This document shows, piece after piece, positions 6,957 to 26,084 of a stretch of DNA of 64,000 bases. The notes below the pieces were generated by a model. That model did not search any database. It was not told the origin of the DNA and was given only the letters and a program-made list of their open reading frames with translations. Positions within the stretch are counted from its first letter, which is position 1. Each line of letters begins with the position of its first letter. Position numbers and translations under genes: made by a program. The DNA is from Parcubacteria group bacterium (GTDB lineage Bacteria; Patescibacteriota; Minisyncoccia; Moranbacterales; UBA2206), in assembly GCA_041664225.1 (NCBI GenBank), contig JBAYLE010000001.1:4939-68938 (forward strand), given 5' to 3'.

Positions 6957-8357
6957 ATGGCTACAAAAGAACTAAATTCTATGGAAAAAATCGTCTCTCT
7001 TTGTAAAAGGCGGGGGTTTGTGTTCCCGTCCTCGGAAATTTATGGGGGACTCGCGGCGATTTATGATTATGGCCATTACGGGACACTGCTCAAAAACAAC
7101 ATTTGTGATGAGTGGTGGAAGCATATGGTGCAATATCGAGACGACGTAGTGGGACTCGACAGCGCGATCTTCATGCATCCAACTACCTGGAAGGCTTCCG
7201 GGCACATCGACAGTTTTGACGATCCACAGATTGATTGTAAAAAATGCAAAGCCCGGATGCGTGCTGATCATGTGCTGGAACTCTTTGGAATTAGCGCCGA
7301 CAAACAGCCGCTGGATTTTATTAATATTGAACTAAAAAAACTGAGAGAATTGGGAAAATTAAAATGTCAGAGTTGTGGCTCGGCAGATTTGACCGAAGCC
7401 AAAAGATTTTCTTTGATGGTAAAATCTAATCTGGGTTCCCCCACTGATGCGCTTTCCGAGGAACATGTAGTGTATTTGCGTCCGGAAACTTGCGGAGGAA
7501 TATATCTCGAATACAAAAACACGCTGGATTCCACGCGCGTGAAACTGCCGTTCGGCATTGCCCAAGTCGGAAAAGCTTTTCGCAATGAAATCATCGCCCG
7601 CCAGTTTATTTTTCGCACGCGTGAATTTGAACAGATGGAGATGCAATATTTTTTGCATCCCAAGGATATGAATGAGAAATATGAAATGTGGAAAGACACA
7701 CGCTGGAGATGGTATTTAGAATATGGAATCGGAGAAAAAGATATCCGTTGGTATGAACATGAAAAATTGGCGCATTACGCTTCGCAAGCTTATGATGTGG
7801 AATATAATTTCAAGTCGCTGGGCGGATTCAAAGAAGTGGAGGGCATTCACGCGCGCGGTGACTGGGATCTTTCGCAACACTCGAAATTTTCCGGAGTTGA
7901 TCTCTCGTATCTTGACGAAAAGACCGGGGAAAAATTTATTCCGCACATTATGGAAACTTCGGTGGGGCTCAATAGACTATTTTTTATGTTTATTGACAAG
8001 GCCTATACGGAAGAAAAAACTGGTGGAGAAATCAGGACCATGCTCAAGCTGGACAAACGGCTGGCGCCGATCAAAGTCGCCATTTTCCCGCTGTTGCGCA
8101 ACAAGCCGGAATTGGTGGCCAAGGCCAGAGAAATTTACGAAAGTCTCAAACCACAGTTTATGTGCGAATTTGATGACAATGGAAATGTCGGTAAAAGATA
8201 CAGAAGGCAGGACGAAATCGGGACGCCATATTGCGTGACAGTGGATTTTGACACCCTAGAAGACAGTGCCGTTACTGTGCGCGACCGGGATACGATGCAA
8301 CAGGAGAGGGTAAAAATTGAAGAATTAAAAAATTATTTTAGTGAAAAATTAAACTAA
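6957..8357 (+). CDS. glyS: Glycyl-tRNA synthetase, archaeal/eukaryote-type homodimeric form
   Basis: EIYGGLAAIYDYGHYG, class II motifs (FRNEIIARQFIFRTREFEQMEMQYF), and a C-terminal anticodon-binding domain. Confidence 0.85.
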   Translation: MATKELNSMEKIVSLCKRRGFVFPSSEIYGGLAAIYDYGHYGTLLKNNICDEWWKHMVQYRDDVVGLDSAIFMHPTTWKASGHIDSFDDPQIDCKKCKARMRADHVLELFGISADKQPLDFINIELKKLRELGKLKCQSCGSADLTEAKRFSLMVKSNLGSPTDALSEEHVVYLRPETCGGIYLEYKNTLDSTRVKLPFGIAQVGKAFRNEIIARQFIFRTREFEQMEMQYFLHPKDMNEKYEMWKDTRWRWYLEYGIGEKDIRWYEHEKLAHYASQAYDVEYNFKSLGGFKEVEGIHARGDWDLSQHSKFSGVDLSYLDEKTGEKFIPHIMETSVGLNRLFFMFIDKAYTEEKTGGEIRTMLKLDKRLAPIKVAIFPLLRNKPELVAKAREIYESLKPQFMCEFDDNGNVGKRYRRQDEIGTPYCVTVDFDTLEDSAVTVRDRDTMQQERVKIEELKNYFSEKLN

Positions 8358-18800: not shown

Positions 18801-19198
18801 AAATAACAGCGATACAATACGCAAATACCCTGTATGAATTAACTGATGGAAAAACCAAGCAAGAGGTTGATGGTGTTGTCGCTGGTTTCTTGAAAGTCTT
18901 GCGGAAAAACAATCAGCTAAAAATGGCAGGAAAAATAATTGAAAAATTCAGTAATTTATATAATCAGAAAAATGGAATTGTGGAAGCGGAGGTTACGAGC
19001 CGGGAAGCGTTGAGCAAGGATGTAGGTAATAAATTACGTAATTATGTAAGTACCAAATACAAAGCAAAAGAAGTGGTGATAAAGAATAAAATTGATGAAG
19101 GCATAAAAGGCGGAATAATCATTAAGGTTGGAGATGAGATAGTTGATGCCAGTATTTCAGGAAAGTTAAGAAGTTTAAAAAGTTCTTTGGAAAAATAA
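18797..19198 (+). CDS. atpH: ATP synthase delta subunit (short OSCP)
   Basis: Operon position and OSCP-like N-terminal domain. Only 133 aa. Confidence 0.6.
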   Translation: MKITAIQYANTLYELTDGKTKQEVDGVVAGFLKVLRKNNQLKMAGKIIEKFSNLYNQKNGIVEAEVTSREALSKDVGNKLRNYVSTKYKAKEVVIKNKIDEGIKGGIIIKVGDEIVDASISGKLRSLKSSLEK

Positions 19199-19258
19199 AA
19201 AAGCCCGTGGTGCTCGTTGAGTATTTAAACTCATTGAGTCCGCTGACGGCTTATAAGG

Positions 19259-19471
19259 TCACGGTCTAATAAATTTTCTCAGGAATACTGCTCCATAGAC
19301 TATCCCCGTGATTCCAATTATTCCCCATATTACCTTTACATATCCGGGGCTTATATATGGGTTTACTGTCAAACTAAGGCATAGTATGCCCAAAATAATC
19401 GGGCAGAAAGAATATGCTATTCCAACTTTCCTTAGCCATTGCATAAGAGCCTCTAATGTTTTTTTCTCCAT
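19259..19471 (-). CDS. Small membrane protein (70 aa, 2 TM) antisense to the atp operon, with its own promoter and SD
   Basis: On the minus strand: TTGACA, 17 nt, TATACT, then AAGGGGG 5 nt before the ATG. K/R-rich termini with a hydrophobic core. Confidence 0.5.
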   Translation of the reverse strand: MEKKTLEALMQWLRKVGIAYSFCPIILGILCLSLTVNPYISPGYVKVIWGIIGITGIVYGAVFLRKFIRP

Positions 19472-19512
19472 TTGTCCCCCTTTTAGATTTTCGTTGAGAT
19501 CTAAGACTTTGT

Positions 19513-19541
19513 AGTATATATCAAAACGGGGAAGTTGTCAA
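19513..19541 (-). promoter_or_regulatory. Near-consensus sigma70 promoter (TTGACA-17-TATACT) driving the 70-aa antisense gene
   Basis: The reverse complement of 19513-19541 reads TTGACAacttccccgttttgataTATACT. Confidence 0.6.
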
Positions 19542-19547
19542 GGCTCC

Positions 19548-19629
19548 TACAAAATTACAAATAAAGTACAAATATACAAATGTGAATTAAAAAATATTTG
19601 TAAATTTGTAAAAGATTTGTAGATTTGTA
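19548..19629. repeat. Long imperfect inverted repeat: four TACAAA units, a 16-nt spacer, then four TTTGTA units (33-nt arms, 26/33 complementary)
   Basis: tacaaaattacaaataaagtacaaatatacaaa ... tttgtaaatttgtaaaagatttgtagatttgta, immediately upstream of atpA. Confidence 0.7.
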
Positions 19630-19660
19630 GGGATCTTAACTAAATTTATTTCACAATTCT

Positions 19661-21235
19661 ATGTCAAACAAGGATTACATTATCGACCAATTGAAAAAAC
19701 AAATTGAAGGCTTTGAGGCCAAGACGAAAACCGAAAAAGTCGGGGTCGTGTTGGAAGTGGGGGACGGCGTGGCGCGAATTTCGGGATTGTCGGACATTAT
19801 GGCTTCGGAGATGGTAGAGTTTATTCCATCACACGAAAAAGAAGCTAAGCCTCTCTCGACCGAAACGACCAAAAGAAGCTTAGCTTCTGAAAGCGTTTAC
19901 GGCGTTGCTCTTAACTTGGAAGAAGACAGAATTGGAGTCGTGGTTTTGGGCGACGACAAAGGCATCAAAGAAGGCGACACGGTCAAAGCCACAGGCAGAA
20001 TTCTTTCTGTGCCGGCCGGAGAGAATATGATCGGCCGAGTCATTGATCCGTTGGGACAAGCGATTGACGGCAAAGGCGAAATCAAGACGGAAAAATTTTA
20101 TCCGATTGAAAAAATCGCGCCGGGTGTTATTACCCGCCAATCAGTCAATCAGCCGGTGCAAACCGGCATCAAGGCCATTGACGCGGCGATTCCGATTGGA
20201 CGCGGGCAGCGCGAACTTATCATTGGCGATCGCCAGACTGGAAAAACCGCCGTGGCGATTGACACGATTATCAACCAAAGAGGCCAGGACATGATTTGCA
20301 TCTATGTTGCCATTGGCCAAAAAGAATCAAAAGTAGCGCGTATTGTGGCGGAACTTTCAAAAAGAGGCGCCATGGATTATACGATCGTGGTAGTGGCGGG
20401 TGCATCTGATCCAGCGGCGTTTTCCTATATCGCTCCGTATTCCGGTTGCGCGATTGGTGAATATTTTATGGATCAGGGCAAAGACGTATTGGTGATTTAT
20501 GATGATTTGTCCAAACACGCTTGGGCGTATCGCCAGATGTCGTTGATTTTGAAACGTCCGCCGGGACGCGAAGCCTATCCGGGAGATATTTTCTATCTGC
20601 ACTCACGTTTGCTTGAAAGAAGTGCGAAACTTAACAAGGATTTTGGCGGGGGATCACTCACAGCTCTCCCCATCATTGAAACACAAGCCGGTGATGTTTC
20701 GGCTTACATTCCGACTAATGTTATTTCCATCACCGATGGACAAATATATCTGGAAGCGGATTTATTTTACAAAGGTATCCGTCCGGCGTTGAATGTTGGA
20801 CTTTCAGTTTCCCGCGTAGGATCAGCCGCGCAGATCAAAGCGATGAAAAAAGTGGCGGGAAAATTACGTTTGGATTTGGCGCAGTTTCGGGAACTTGAAG
20901 CTTTCGCCCAATTTGGATCAGACCTTGATGAAAAAACCCGAATGCAAATTGAAAGAGGAAGGCGAACAGTAGAAATTCTGAAACAAGACCAATATTCACC
21001 GATGGCGGTCGAAAACCAAGTAGCGATTCTTTATGCTTTGACTCAAGGATTTATGGATGACGTGGCGGTGGAAAAAGTGAAAGCTTGGGAAAATGATTTT
21101 CAAAAATTCATGAAGACAGAAGGAAAAGTTGCACTGGCGGCTATCGCGGAAAAGAAAGAGTTGTCTGATGATGTGGTCGCAAAATTGGAAAAAGCTATCA
21201 AAGAGTTTAAAGAAATTTACCAAAACGGGAACTAA
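19661..21235 (+). CDS. atpA: ATP synthase F1 alpha subunit
   Basis: Walker A GDRQTGKT and alpha-type C-terminal domain. Confidence 0.9.
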
Positions 21236-21241
21236 AAGATT

Positions 21242-22201
21242 ATGGCTTCAAGCAAAGACATTAGGCGTCGAATAAAATCGATCAATAACACCAAAAAAAT
21301 AACCCGCGCGATGGAGATGGTTAGTGCTGCCAAAATGAGAAAAGCAGTAAATTCAGTGTTGGCAATCCGAGCTTATGCTCACAGCGCTTGGAGCGTGCTC
21401 ACCAATCTTGCTCGCGCTTTTTCTGAATACAACGTCGGGCTCTTAGAGAGGCGTCCAGTGAAGGCGGTGCTGATGGTTGTTGTCACATCCAACAAAGGAC
21501 TTTGCGGATCTTTCAATTCAAATATTTCCAAAAAGATTGTTGATCAGATAAAAAATCCGGCTAATTTGAAAATCAACCGGATTGGAAACAAAAGAATAGA
21601 ATCTCCAGTAACCGATGGCGAATTGAAAATTGATTTTATAACCATCGGTAAGAAAGGTGAAGCGTTGGTGCGAAAGCTCGGAAAAAATATTGTAGCTAGT
21701 TTTCCGGAGCTCACATATCTGCCTGGCATTGAAAGCGTGAGAGCCTTGGGTAAAATTGTGATGGATGAATACCTCGCGAAAAAATATGACAAGGTTGTAA
21801 TTGTTTATACTGATTATATTTCCACCATCAACCAGCAGACAAAAATTAGACAGCTTTTGCCGGTTTCAAAAATTGATCTCGAAAAACAAATCGCGGAAAT
21901 GGATCAGATGGCCAAAGAATATGGACTTACTCAGCCGAAAGTGGAATACAAAATTGAACCGAGTCCGGAAATTGTGATTACGCATATTCTGCCGAGACTA
22001 TTGGAAATGCAAGTGTATCACGCGATTTTGGAATCAAACGCGTCCAAGGAATCCGCGCGCATGATTGCGATGCGGAACGCGACCGACGCGGCCGGAGAAA
22101 TGTCAGACGAATTAACATTTGTATATAATCAGTTGCGGCAGATGAAGATCACGCAGGAGATTGCGGAGATTTCGGCTGGAAGGGCGGCGTTGGAAGGATA
22201 G
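21242..22201 (+). CDS. atpG: ATP synthase F1 gamma subunit
   Basis: N-terminus MASSKDIRRRIKSINNTKKITRAMEMVSAAKMRKA and C-terminal helix. Confidence 0.85.
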   Translation: MASSKDIRRRIKSINNTKKITRAMEMVSAAKMRKAVNSVLAIRAYAHSAWSVLTNLARAFSEYNVGLLERRPVKAVLMVVVTSNKGLCGSFNSNISKKIVDQIKNPANLKINRIGNKRIESPVTDGELKIDFITIGKKGEALVRKLGKNIVASFPELTYLPGIESVRALGKIVMDEYLAKKYDKVVIVYTDYISTINQQTKIRQLLPVSKIDLEKQIAEMDQMAKEYGLTQPKVEYKIEPSPEIVITHILPRLLEMQVYHAILESNASKESARMIAMRNATDAAGEMSDELTFVYNQLRQMKITQEIAEISAGRAALEG

Positions 22202-22202
22202 T

Positions 22203-22240
22203 TTTTTAAAAAAAATGCTGGGAATCAATAGACGCCCAGC
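22203..22240 (-). terminator. Rho-independent terminator for the 80-aa antisense gene (gctggg/cccagc stem followed by a T-run on the minus strand)
   Basis: Minus strand reads gctgggcgtctattgattcccagcattttttttaaaaaac. Confidence 0.55.
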
Positions 22241-22261
22241 GAGAGTCCGGAGTCTGATAGG

Positions 22262-22504
22262 CTAATGGCCGTCATCAGTTGCGAACTTCTTAATGTGTGT
22301 TAGTTTGAAAACCCTCATCATGGTATTGTGTGACAGCTGTTCCTTGGTTTCTTTTTTAATTCTCCCAAGGCTCTCCTTGTCAACATATATTATTTCGATA
22401 GGAGCATCCTTATCATCATTGCTTCTAATCTCGATAATATGTGTTGCTGAGCGTGGCAAGCACTCATATCTAATCCCATTCCATTGTACGCTTAACCAAA
22501 CCAT
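22262..22504 (-). CDS. Orphan 80-aa soluble protein antisense to the atp operon (MVWLSVQWNGIRYE...)
   Basis: Preferred start is the ATG preceded by AAAGGAGGTG. The longer ORF-finder start is a TTG lying inside the -10 box. K/E/D-rich composition, unlike the opposite-strand shadow ORF. Confidence 0.5.
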   Translation of the reverse strand: MVWLSVQWNGIRYECLPRSATHIIEIRSNDDKDAPIEIIYVDKESLGRIKKETKEQLSHNTMMRVFKLTHIKKFATDDGH

Positions 22505-22566
22505 CCTTATCCACCTCCTTTGTTTATCCTTGTTATCGCAAAATGTAGGATTTTTACTAACTCTCA

Positions 22567-22595
22567 ATTATACTCCAAACCATCCCAAAAGTCAA
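22567..22595 (-). promoter_or_regulatory. Consensus sigma70 promoter TTGACT-17-TATAAT for the 80-aa antisense gene
   Basis: Reverse complement reads TTGACTtttgggatggtttggagTATAAT. Confidence 0.65.
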
Positions 22596-22644
22596 GCGTT
22601 GAGTTGTGATCAGTAAATATTGCCTAAATTAAGCCAATATTTAG

Positions 22645-24099
<1,455 letters not shown>

Positions 24100-24130
24100 A
24101 TAAAATAATCAAATTAATTTATTAAAAGGT

Positions 24131-24586
24131 ATGATAAATTTATTTCTTGAAACCATATCTGCGGTTGTAGAGAATCTAGAACCTATATTAGTTTTACTAC
24201 TGCCAGTGTTGGTTATTGCGCTTGTATTTTTTTCATTCATTTCTAATTATTTGATTAATAAAATTACAAAGAATATATACAAAAATAATTTTTTATTTGA
24301 TTATTTAGCATGTATCATTTTCCTTGCTGTACTCGTAATTTTTAATAGTATACTGATTATTGTCGCAACTGATGATAATTTAAAAATTTCTTCGGTAATT
24401 ATTATACCAATCGTTTCTGCAATTATTTATTTAATTTTTAAATATTATATTTTAGTAAAAATTGGCAAAAAGACATTTTTAGATATGGCGATTAGCGCAC
24501 TGTTTGATTTCATAGCCATAGCAGCTGGCATTTATATTATAGGATTAATTTTTGATGCAGGAATGTCAGCGGGTGGTTTTGCTTAA
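24131..24586 (+). CDS. Ile/Leu-rich 4-TM membrane protein inserted between atpD and atpC; GC far below that of its neighbours
   Basis: 151-aa ORF, locally about 28% GC versus about 42% in the flanks. No intergenic space to atpC. Confidence 0.5.
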   Translation: MINLFLETISAVVENLEPILVLLLPVLVIALVFFSFISNYLINKITKNIYKNNFLFDYLACIIFLAVLVIFNSILIIVATDDNLKISSVIIIPIVSAIIYLIFKYYILVKIGKKTFLDMAISALFDFIAIAAGIYIIGLIFDAGMSAGGFA

Positions 24587-24593
24587 AAAATTT

Positions 24594-25040
24594 ATGGCAA
24601 ACATGAAAATTAATTTCAAAATTGTTACACCGGAAAAAACTGTTTTTGAGTCTGAAATTGATCAGGCGACTTTGCCAGTGGCGGACGGGGAAGTGACAAT
24701 TCTGCCGAATCATCGAAGTTATATCGCCGCGCTCAAAGCCGGAGAAATTTGCCTCAAAAAAGACGGCGAAGAAATTATTATGGCTACTTCTGGAGGATTT
24801 ATTGAATTTCATGACAATAGTTTGGTGGTGTTGGCTGACACAGCCGAACGCGCGGAAGAAATTGATTTGAAACGCGCGGAGGAGGCTAAAGTCAGAGCTG
24901 AAGAAGCGATGAAACAGAAAGAAAGCATGGACAACGCGGAATATGCGCGCGTGGCCGCGGCGATTGAAAAAGAAATGGCGCGCCTACGAGTAGGCAAAAA
25001 ACATCGCACAAAAAAGGGAATCAACATAAACAATGAATAA
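24594..25040 (+). CDS. atpC: ATP synthase F1 epsilon subunit
   Basis: MKINFKIVTPEKTVFESEIDQATLPV... followed by a C-terminal helical hairpin. Confidence 0.8.
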   Translation: MANMKINFKIVTPEKTVFESEIDQATLPVADGEVTILPNHRSYIAALKAGEICLKKDGEEIIMATSGGFIEFHDNSLVVLADTAERAEEIDLKRAEEAKVRAEEAMKQKESMDNAEYARVAAAIEKEMARLRVGKKHRTKKGININNE

Positions 25041-25043
25041 TTA

Positions 25044-26084
25044 ATGCCGCTATGGAAAATGGAAAATAAAATAAAATCACTCATTGATCTCAATAAAAAA
25101 CACTCAGAATTTTTTTGCAGCCAGAGATTGGAACGTGAATTGTATTTAGCTAAGCATCCGACAAAGGTTGTGGCCTTTAAATGTATGGATGGGCGGATCC
25201 ATATGCCCGCAGTAACACACACTCCCTTGGGAATAATCCGTCCTTACAGAAATATTGGTGGAAAATTTGATCTGGGCTGGCCACTTTTGAATAATTCTTT
25301 TGACAATCTGGTTATGAGCGCAGTTTTCAAAGGCAATCGGGTTTTGGTTTTGGTAACCTATCATTATTCTGAGGGTGACACTCATCAAGGTTGCGCCGGA
25401 TTTCAATATGATTGTGAGGCAGCCAAAGAGTTTACCGACAATTTCAAAAAACAAATCCAGAGAGTTTATGGAGAATCAAACCGGGTAGTTTGTCCGGTTT
25501 TGGTGGGGCTGGAAACTGATAAGGACACCCTGATCCTACATGGCGAAAACGGGGAAGTGTTAGATTTATCTAAAGTTGAAAATAAAGAGGAGGAAAATCT
25601 CAAAGAAAAATTAAGGAACCTGTATCCTAAAATGCCGGGTAGAGTTCTTCTTGATTTTTTGCCTCTGGTTCAGGGGAATATTGAGCACATCGCAGAAATG
25701 AAAGGCAAAAAACCCATAACCCAGCTTCAGCATGGTGAATGGATTTTGGCGGTGGGCAAGGGATTTGACTGGCTGCACACTCCGAATATGGCGTTGATTG
25801 TCGGACCGTATGATCCGAATATCGGCGAACCGATCAAGACCGCGGCCGGCATAATAAAATCGAATATGGATGCTGGCAGAATCGATAAGGGTTTTGTGGT
25901 TTTGTCTTCCGCAGTTTATGCCGATCCGGCTGAAGCAGTACGCAGTAAGGAACGAGCCATGTATTTGGGCAGGCTTACCAGAGAGATTATTGAAAAAAAT
26001 TTCCCAGAAATAGTTAGCTTGATGAATACTCTTACCGTGACGGTAGACGTGAACACGATGAAAATGGAAATCGTAGAACAATGA
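25044..26084 (+). CDS. Beta-carbonic-anhydrase-like protein (CxDxR ... HxxC) with a roughly 180-aa C-terminal extension
   Basis: FKCMDGRIH and YHYSEGDTHQGCAGF supply the Cys/Asp/Arg and His/Cys ligands in beta-CA order and spacing. Confidence 0.4.
   Translation: MPLWKMENKIKSLIDLNKKHSEFFCSQRLERELYLAKHPTKVVAFKCMDGRIHMPAVTHTPLGIIRPYRNIGGKFDLGWPLLNNSFDNLVMSAVFKGNRVLVLVTYHYSEGDTHQGCAGFQYDCEAAKEFTDNFKKQIQRVYGESNRVVCPVLVGLETDKDTLILHGENGEVLDLSKVENKEEENLKEKLRNLYPKMPGRVLLDFLPLVQGNIEHIAEMKGKKPITQLQHGEWILAVGKGFDWLHTPNMALIVGPYDPNIGEPIKTAAGIIKSNMDAGRIDKGFVVLSSAVYADPAEAVRSKERAMYLGRLTREIIEKNFPEIVSLMNTLTVTVDVNTMKMEIVEQ

Follow-up and report, generated by a model that had tools for sequence, protein, structure and literature searches.

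The Patescibacteria, or candidate phyla radiation (CPR), have small, streamlined genomes that are rich in orphan genes. In replacement-type flexible genomic islands and islets, variable genes are exchanged between conserved flanks by homologous recombination, and in integron cassettes the open reading frame (ORF) usually lacks a promoter and is followed on its 3' side by an attC site, with an integrase or a cassette array nearby. Stabilizing stem-loops are known in bacterial polycistronic mRNAs, either between cistrons or at the 5' terminus, and cis-antisense RNAs and "excludons" arise where a strong promoter faces an operon from the opposite strand, a cis-antisense transcript overlapping the leader or the coding sequence of its target. 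Phage morons are independent transcription units that lie between adjacent genes of a phage operon and spread horizontally among phages (PMC3594210). Here we analyze the gap between atpG and atpD (positions 22202-22674) in a 64-kb stretch of DNA, referred to as the window, from an uncultured Candidatus Moranbacteria bacterium of the CPR. At a probability of about 0.62, we conclude that this gap holds a self-contained, insulated antisense expression cassette, moron-like in its workings, that sits in a slot of the ATP synthase (atp) operon used recurrently among Moranbacteria. A literature search of incomplete coverage turned up no work on the atp operons of Moranbacteria, and none of relevance to internal or antisense promoters, whether of atp operons or of Patescibacteria.

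Results

Architecture of the antisense cassette

The original prediction, which came from reading the sequence, placed a promoter, a Shine-Dalgarno (SD) sequence, an 80-aa ORF and a terminator on the minus strand of the gap, and all four are present there (Table 1). Their arrangement is confirmed as what would be one complete antisense transcription unit. The promoter ranks first among the promoter-like sites between 16000 and 27000, which bears out the claim that no forward promoter match near the atp genes equals the cassette signals in strength. Of nine promoter matches at 11/12 across the window, seven fall within the roughly 10% of it that is intergenic (a count that includes the match at 22595, which the script flagged as in-gene owing to an ORF in the same gap), and this concentration makes such matches look functional in this genome. 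Consensus SD sequences are rare in this genome, with GGAGG or AGGAG at -5 to -18 in 5 of 568 candidate ORFs (ATG-started, at least 60 aa, all six frames of the window); only the 80-aa ORF has, besides such an SD, an upstream promoter of 10/12 or better and a downstream terminator. No SD is seen by eye before atpD, and the inserted cassettes of the window and of relatives nearly all have a strong one. Genes in the window favor the plus strand by 53 to 4.

The hairpin of the terminator (-14.8 kcal/mol, z -2.3) is followed by a U-run on the minus strand and by none on the plus strand, so the terminator would act one way only, and it ends 6 nt short of the atpG stop codon. The cassette lies tail-to-tail with atpG, convergent as predicted, and head-to-head with atpD. 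The further claim that its transcript would run through the 5' region of atpD does not hold, since the predicted transcription start is close to 22560 and the opposite strand carries atpD from 22675 onward, so that the two diverge and do not cross. GC (guanine plus cytosine) skew and AT skew both change sign inside the gap, as expected from minus-strand coding.

Table 1. Coordinates, in the window, of the cassette, its flanks and the other inserts of the atp operon (SD, Shine-Dalgarno; UTR, untranslated region; TM, transmembrane).
Feature	Position	Strand	Remarks
Promoter, sigma-70-type, TTGACT-17-TATAAT	22567..22595	-	11/12 consensus; would drive the cassette
5' UTR, putative, including SD	22505..22560	-	inferred transcription start near 22560
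SD AAAGGAGGTG	22521-22512	-	7 nt ahead of the ATG at 22504
80-aa orphan ORF (MVWLSVQWNG...DDGH)	22262..22504	-	stop codon (22264-22262) included
Intrinsic terminator, predicted	22208..22240	-	hairpin 22240-22217, then U-run AUUUUUUUU at 22216-22208
Variable cargo segment (5' UTR, ORF, terminator)	22202..22558	-	no nucleotide homologue in any relative
Conserved module, ~105 nt (antisense promoter and leader hairpin)	22559..22663	.	nhmmer, blastn
Conserved leader hairpin (palindrome of ~50 nt)	22597..22660	+	ends 14 nt before the atpD ATG
atpG (F1 gamma subunit)	21242..22201	+	upstream flank, convergent with the cassette
atpD (F1 beta subunit)	22675..24099	+	downstream flank, divergent from the cassette promoter
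Second antisense cassette, atpH-atpA gap (462 bp)	19199..19660	-	same design, different sequence
Second-cassette promoter TTGACA-17-TATACT	19541-19513	-	11/12
Second-cassette ORF, 70 aa	19471-19259	-	two predicted TM segments; SD-like AAGGGGG
Second-cassette leader hairpin, 109 nt	19533-19641		TACAAAT-type heptamer repeats; -36.1 kcal/mol, z -6.5
Third insert, atpD-atpC, 151-aa multi-TM ORF	24131-24586	+	sense strand

The atpG-atpD junction in relatives

Relatives from Candidatus Moranbacteria and Patescibacteria were retrieved by atpG, and their loci were viewed over ~6 kb on either side of that gene. The length of the atpG-atpD junction is bimodal, with about 40 loci at 0-117 bp and about 40 at 170-2270 bp. 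In Moranbacteria-like loci it exceeds 150 bp in 58% of cases, compared with 18% for atpH-atpA, 11% for atpA-atpG and 5% for atpD-atpC, and in distant bacteria the atpG-atpD junction does so in 13%. This junction is an insertion hotspot in Moranbacteria relatives. Contiguity of atpG and atpD, which the original prediction had named as a check, is found in some of them, such as L016 (87% atpG identity), where 30 bp separate the two genes. In the closest relative, L084 (94% in atpG), the flanks align at 80-88%, and a 419-bp gap unrelated to that of the window carries a sense-strand ORF for a 121-aa membrane protein. The gap has a lower GC content than its flanks in every case (0.37 against 0.44 in the window), and the gap ORFs are unrelated to one another across relatives, CYTH, DUF559, 23S_rRNA_IVP and NUDIX being among the families represented, along with a weak PQ-loop match below the Pfam cutoff. 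Absence of the ORF from relatives that keep the spacer as conserved noncoding DNA had been named as an outcome that would refute the antisense gene. The first part is what we see, as the ORF is absent elsewhere; the second is not, because the spacer is replaced by other genes or deleted, and within it only the promoter and hairpin module is conserved among relatives.

A minus-strand promoter of at least 10/12 is present in 22 of the 41 occupied gaps (at least 11/12 in 14 of them), mostly 50-200 bp from atpD, and a comparable plus-strand promoter in 6 of the 41. When the strand of the best gap ORF was assigned by a pooled coding model, the minus-strand promoter of at least 10/12 was found in 12 of 16 gaps with an antisense best ORF and in 0 of 17 with a sense best ORF. 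The gaps of L085, L004, L087 and L086 open, in the first ~40 nt after the atpG stop codon, with degenerate tandem repeats of ~7 nt (TAAGAAT, TACGAAT and ACAGATT types) that resemble the TACAAAT repeats of the atpH-atpA hairpin in the window.

A backward promoter coupled to a leader hairpin

The nhmmer search recovered 11 forward-strand copies of the module from 10 sources, all in atp gaps within the viewed loci, and a covariance-model search added none. Copies lie next to atpD in the window, L013, L093, L123, L006, L092, L020, L101 and L119, and upstream of atpA in L119 and L007, so that L119 bears the module at two junctions; the rest of the 64-kb window and 1.47 Mb of loci yielded no further copy. 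Against L013, blastn aligns the module at 89% identity over 109 nt. In a separate comparison of conservation with the same relative the module is 85% identical, the atpD coding sequence ~80% and atpG 63%, so module conservation matches that of atpD and exceeds that of atpG. We looked for a recombination tract behind the 89% identity and found none; atpD is ~80% identical throughout, which makes purifying selection the simpler reading. On the minus strand, the bases invariant in all 11 aligned copies are the TTGAC of the -35 and T1, A2 and T6 of the -10, which are the positions critical for sigma-70, and when the promoters of occupied gaps are lined up their similarity extends beyond the hexamers. 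The module holds no conserved -35/-10 pair that could be a forward promoter for atpD; a -10-like TAGAAT box in it is without the critical final T in the window, L013 and L123.

The leader hairpin folds at -17.9 kcal/mol (z -4.4) on the plus strand versus -11.7 kcal/mol (z -1.8) on the minus strand. In an alignment of 10 sequences 94.4% of the hairpin cells are paired, compared with 35-47% in slid controls, and compensatory changes occur at four pairs. Our own count gave 21 G-U cells and 5 A/C cells, an excess that favors a hairpin in the sense (plus-strand) transcript, just before the start of atpD. In L119 (~7577-7609) and L101 (~7688-7720), the module copy contains an extra GC-rich hairpin of ~33 nt, such as CCCCGTAAAATAACTTCGTTATCACGGGG, directly upstream of the antisense -35 and between the promoter and the leader hairpin; these coordinates are approximate and were taken from the alignment. 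A heptamer-repeat palindrome like that before atpA in the window is also found ahead of atpD in L085, where the cargo lies in sense orientation.

The palindrome might instead be a recombination site, attC-like or the end of an element mobilized by a hairpin-recognizing transposase, which would make the cassette the cargo of a mobile element. In favor of this, a long imperfect palindrome borders each antisense cassette of the window at its promoter end, L119 has the module in duplicate at two junctions, cargo is swapped cleanly between conserved ends (see below), and the slot also takes DUF559 and 23S_rRNA_IVP genes, both of which are linked to intervening sequences. We nevertheless see only a very slight chance that this explanation is correct, as no recombinase, integrase or transposase domain is present among the called genes within 10 kb on either side, no target-site duplication or terminal inverted repeats were found at the gap, and the module is present once in 64 kb of this genome. 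In addition, the palindrome is conserved in sequence, and its excess of G-U over A/C cells points to an RNA hairpin in the sense transcript.

Apparent cargo exchange behind a shared grammar

The same series of elements lies behind the promoter in 10 of 11 module copies: a leader measuring 46-75 nt (in the window cassette, 62 nt separate the -10 from the ATG), a strong SD with its ATG, an unrelated 56-173-aa ORF, and a predicted intrinsic terminator of -12.7 to -29.7 kcal/mol. In the eleventh copy, from L007, GGAGA...ATG was read by eye from the sequence. The cargos are small membrane, lipoprotein-like or soluble proteins, several of which have a signal peptide, a lipobox-like motif or multi-TM features. 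NCBIfam returned nothing significant for ten module cargos, and that of L092 is an orphan like the one in the window. Between L006 and L092, the 5' end of atpD, the hairpin and the -35 are 92% identical, homology stops inside the promoter spacer, and the terminator is 98.7% identical from ~20 nt past the stop codons, while the -10, the UTR and the ORF between these flanks are unrelated. On alignment, this is a clean cargo swap between close relatives. In a tree of atpG plus atpD, module-bearing loci are scattered and sister taxa differ, as seen for the window and L084, for L006 and the empty L005, and for L093 and the empty L100. Across lineages, the alignments show apparent replacement of the cargo segment as a block between conserved flanks.

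The conservation of promoter and hairpin beside ORFs that are not conserved raises the question of whether antisense transcription is itself the selected function. The ORF would then be incidental, and the antisense RNA would tune the ratio of upstream to downstream atp products, either by transcriptional interference or through cleavage of a sense/antisense duplex, after which the leader hairpin stabilizes the atpD-atpC fragment; a translatable ORF would merely stabilize the antisense RNA, leaving its sequence free to turn over. Such a role would agree with the orphan status of both antisense cargos tested (window and L092), with the position of the module next to atpD or atpA only, which encode the two large F1 subunits, with the folding of the hairpin in sense RNA, and with the lack of a separate visible forward promoter for atpD. 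However, in approximately half of the relatives atpG and atpD lie 20-60 bp apart with no antisense promoter between them, and sister taxa differ in this respect, which indicates that the atp operon does not need one. Gaps with sense cargo also lack the antisense promoter, and the terminator prevents overlap with the coding sequence of atpG. Moreover, strong SDs and cargos with a signal peptide, a lipobox-like motif or several TM segments suggest real proteins, and the ORF in the window has host-like coding statistics. We consider this the main alternative to the cassette reading, though an unlikely one, and a regulatory role on atp expression is disfavored.

The 80-aa protein

We scored coding potential with a 3-periodic Markov model trained on the 50 long genes of the window. 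The 80-aa ORF scores +0.080 nats per codon, above the maximum of 0.068 among 108 shadow ORFs, and its frame is the only one of six with a positive score. By our own count the protein contains 8 K, 5 R, 6 D and 6 E, for a net charge of about +1, and is not markedly K/E/D-rich as it had been described. It is hydrophilic, without a signal peptide or TM segment, and is predicted to be cytoplasmic. A word-indexed search of 5.8 billion clusters matched only the ORF itself, on three contigs (L001-L003) that are identical to the window across the cassette. An exhaustive HMMER search added three matches with E-values of 1e-5 to 1e-26, which we rejected as homologues. They are eukaryote-type proteins made of near-identical tandem repeats, and because the score is summed over 7-13 repeat copies we treat them as noise; a single repeat unit scores 31.6 bits (14/41 identities), which by our own arithmetic is far from significant for a library of 2.4e11 residues. 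Searches of Pfam, PHROGs and PADLOC gave no match to the protein, and the sole NCBIfam match, to an antitoxin family, reached 12.4 bits where the cutoff is 57. A single-sequence AlphaFold2 model has a beta4-alpha2 topology at a predicted local distance difference test (pLDDT) score of 55.6, and a Foldseek search of the PDB with this model gave a best E-value of 0.53 and no fold match; neither model nor search is informative. In the libraries searched the protein, in which the original prediction recognized no motif, has no significant sequence or fold similarity to a known family. The ORF is absent from all of the relatives' atp loci, nothing in Pfam links its product to an ATP synthase subunit or assembly factor, and an ATPase_gene1 (AtpI-like) gene sits separately, upstream of atpB. 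Our best guess is that the product is an accessory, strain-specific small protein rather than a regulator or a subunit of ATP synthase. Taken alone, it is an ordinary orphan, and the interest lies in the slot.

Orphan status and a low-confidence structure model are also what a nonfunctional remnant would give, in which a chance ORF in decaying inserted DNA stands beside a promoter conserved for some other reason; likewise, the copies of the locus show no variation and the gap is lower in GC than its flanks. We regard such decay as quite improbable, because this is the sole ORF of 568 to combine SD, promoter and terminator, its coding score tops every shadow ORF in the only positive frame, and the same promoter-SD-ORF-terminator grammar recurs in 10 of 11 module copies.

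The original prediction also raised a toxin/antitoxin-like element. A toxin-antitoxin (TA), addiction or phage-defense element lodged in an essential operon would be a small, self-contained gene with its own strong promoter at a locus that is hard to lose, as observed here, and both the NCBIfam match to a putative antitoxin family and the small hydrophobic protein encoded by the other antisense ORF of the operon lean the same way. That match, however, is far under its cutoff, and PADLOC, Pfam and PHROGs are empty. For a type II system, the cassette offers a single ORF with no partner gene and no recognizable toxin or antitoxin family domain. For a type I system, the hydrophilic 80-aa protein, with no TM segment, is unlike the toxins, and the cassette contains no second promoter for an antisense RNA (no plus-strand match of at least 10/12). 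In addition, cargos in the same slot elsewhere are a mixture of membrane, lipoprotein-like and soluble proteins rather than one TA family. The suggestion therefore fares poorly, and we would be surprised if an element of this class proved to occupy the gap.

Other inserts and neighbors in the operon

The genes of the operon run in the order atpB-E-F-H-A-G-D-C. The description of the operon as otherwise tightly packed needs correction, since it contains two more inserts besides that at atpG-atpD, namely the 462-bp atpH-atpA gap and the 151-aa ORF at atpD-atpC. In the atpH-atpA cassette, the leader hairpin borders the antisense -35 on one side and stops ~20 nt short of the atpA ATG on the other. 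The coding score of its 70-aa ORF is ambiguous (-0.030), and the ORF is encoded in no relative locus examined. The 151-aa ORF has a GC content of 23%, against ~45% in its flanks, and a coding score of +0.078; it matches no family significantly (BrkB comes closest, with 15 bits where the cutoff is 33.7), and the relatives' loci contain no homologue of it. Across 18900-25200, Rfam gave one match, a chance snoRNA in atpG at 24.9 bits against a cutoff of 49, and none in the gaps.

Several further observations concern the neighboring genes. The first gene after atpC (25044-26084, 346 aa) matches CsoSCA_cat, the catalytic domain of carboxysome-shell carbonic anhydrase, at 26 bits against a cutoff of 21.5, an unusual neighbor for an atp operon in a CPR bacterium. 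Over 20 kb, L001, an independent ENA assembly, departs from the window at one base only, a T to A at 23418, which turns Tyr248 of atpD (TAT) into a TAA stop, so that the gene caller gives pieces of 247 aa and 217 aa; an error of assembly or a genuine nonsense variant of the beta subunit would account for it. Two stretches of atpD, 22759-22858 and 22959-23058, have 41-60% nucleotide identity to every relative, including the 94% one, and from the translations the beta subunit of the window, at 474 aa versus 462 aa in L084, seems to contain extra residues. The poor alignment points to probable lineage-specific loops in a very conserved protein.

Discussion

A core bioenergetic operon is here recurrently interrupted by antisense cassettes whose control elements are conserved and whose coding content is replaced in each lineage. 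In the reading we prefer, that of an insulated cassette in a recurrently used slot, the cassette promoter would transcribe the cargo alone, and the one-way terminator would keep antisense RNA out of atpG yet let sense read-through pass. In the operon so interrupted, the leader hairpin would protect or define the 5' terminus of the atpD-atpC message, and cargo would be exchanged by homologous recombination, with the conserved flanks serving as arms. The suggestion that the element hitchhikes in an essential operon fits these data.

Several points weigh against this reading. The promoter, transcription start, terminator and translation are each inferred from sequence, and strong convergent transcription should interfere with atpD expression, given that no forward atpD promoter was found. 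The window and the three matching contigs are identical in the ORF (4 of 4 copies), which, together with the lack of a homologue, leaves no evolutionary evidence of selection on the protein; its coding score also lies within the lowest 15% of true-gene fragments, and the low confidence of the structure model counts on the same side. Neither a recombinase nor a target-site duplication was found that would account for the entry of cargo. The confinement of the module to atp gaps describes, in relatives, the ~6 kb on either side of atpG. Finally, the promoter motif TTGACTTTT-N7-TTTGGAGTATAAT (22 bases) occurs without the hairpin on seven contigs of the IMG/VR viral collection (L164-L170), which amount to about five distinct sequences, as L164 matches L167 and L165 matches L166 in the printed flanks. 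These contigs lack atp genes, and at least two of the motif copies lie upstream of SD-linked ORFs. This suggests a strong-promoter form that would be common to these bacteria and viral elements, and part of the likeness among the promoters may reflect such a general form and not common descent.

A broader proposal, which we advance as possible though doubtful, is that Moranbacteria, and perhaps other Patescibacteria, keep a dedicated, insulated expression slot in the ATP synthase operon. There, a conserved backward promoter would be joined to a leader hairpin that protects the downstream atp gene, and orphan small genes would repeatedly be swapped or born without a recognizable recombinase, making the slot a cradle or showcase for strain-specific small proteins on a locus that cannot be lost. 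If the recurrent interruption of the operon by antisense cassettes is confirmed, the slot would provide a defined, easily recognized place in which to follow the acquisition, exchange or birth of orphan small proteins in uncultured bacteria. It would also be a natural case of an essential operon tolerating a strong convergent promoter, by means of a one-way terminator and a leader hairpin, and its hypervariability would make it a marker with which to track Moranbacteria strains in metagenomes.

Comparison with known systems

The cassette resembles cis-antisense RNAs and excludons in that a strong promoter faces the operon from the other strand. It differs in carrying an SD-linked ORF and in that its transcript would stop before either flanking coding sequence, as the terminator ends at 22208, the atpG stop codon ends at 22201 and the promoter faces away from atpD; overlap of the cassette RNA with a read-through atpG-atpD RNA is possible. 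The leader hairpin recalls stabilizing stem-loops in being conserved, with compensatory changes and sense-strand G-U pairs, right before a downstream cistron. Unlike them, it is physically coupled to a backward promoter, and its role in stability or processing is putative.

Integron cassettes are likewise single-ORF units with diverse, mostly orphan cargo and an imperfect palindrome at one boundary. The atp cassette, in contrast, comes without an integrase, an array or attC core sites in the right order; its palindrome is at the 5' promoter end and conserved in sequence, and each cassette has its own promoter and terminator. Flexible islands offer a closer parallel in their conserved flanks around an unrelated center, as in L006 and L092, and in their patchy distribution among sister lineages, but the atp slot holds one small gene, of ~0.3-0.9 kb, inside an operon, and its flanks are regulatory (the promoter module and the terminator) rather than housekeeping genes alone.

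Like a phage moron, the cassette has, as far as sequence tells, its own promoter and terminator, lies between genes that are adjacent in relatives (30 bp apart in L016, and less than 120 bp in ~40 loci), is atypical in composition (GC 0.37 versus 0.44 in the flanks), and carries cargo that has no relation to the operon around it and varies from one relative to the next. Unlike a moron, it resides in an essential housekeeping operon of a bacterial chromosome, flanked by atp genes, tRNA synthetases and other housekeeping genes, with no PHROGs hit and, by blastn of the gap, no match in a phage collection. In addition, its promoter end is a module found across lineages and coupled to the leader hairpin of a host gene, and it is antisense to the operon. 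Because it lies outside a phage, we describe the cassette as working like a moron rather than class it as one.

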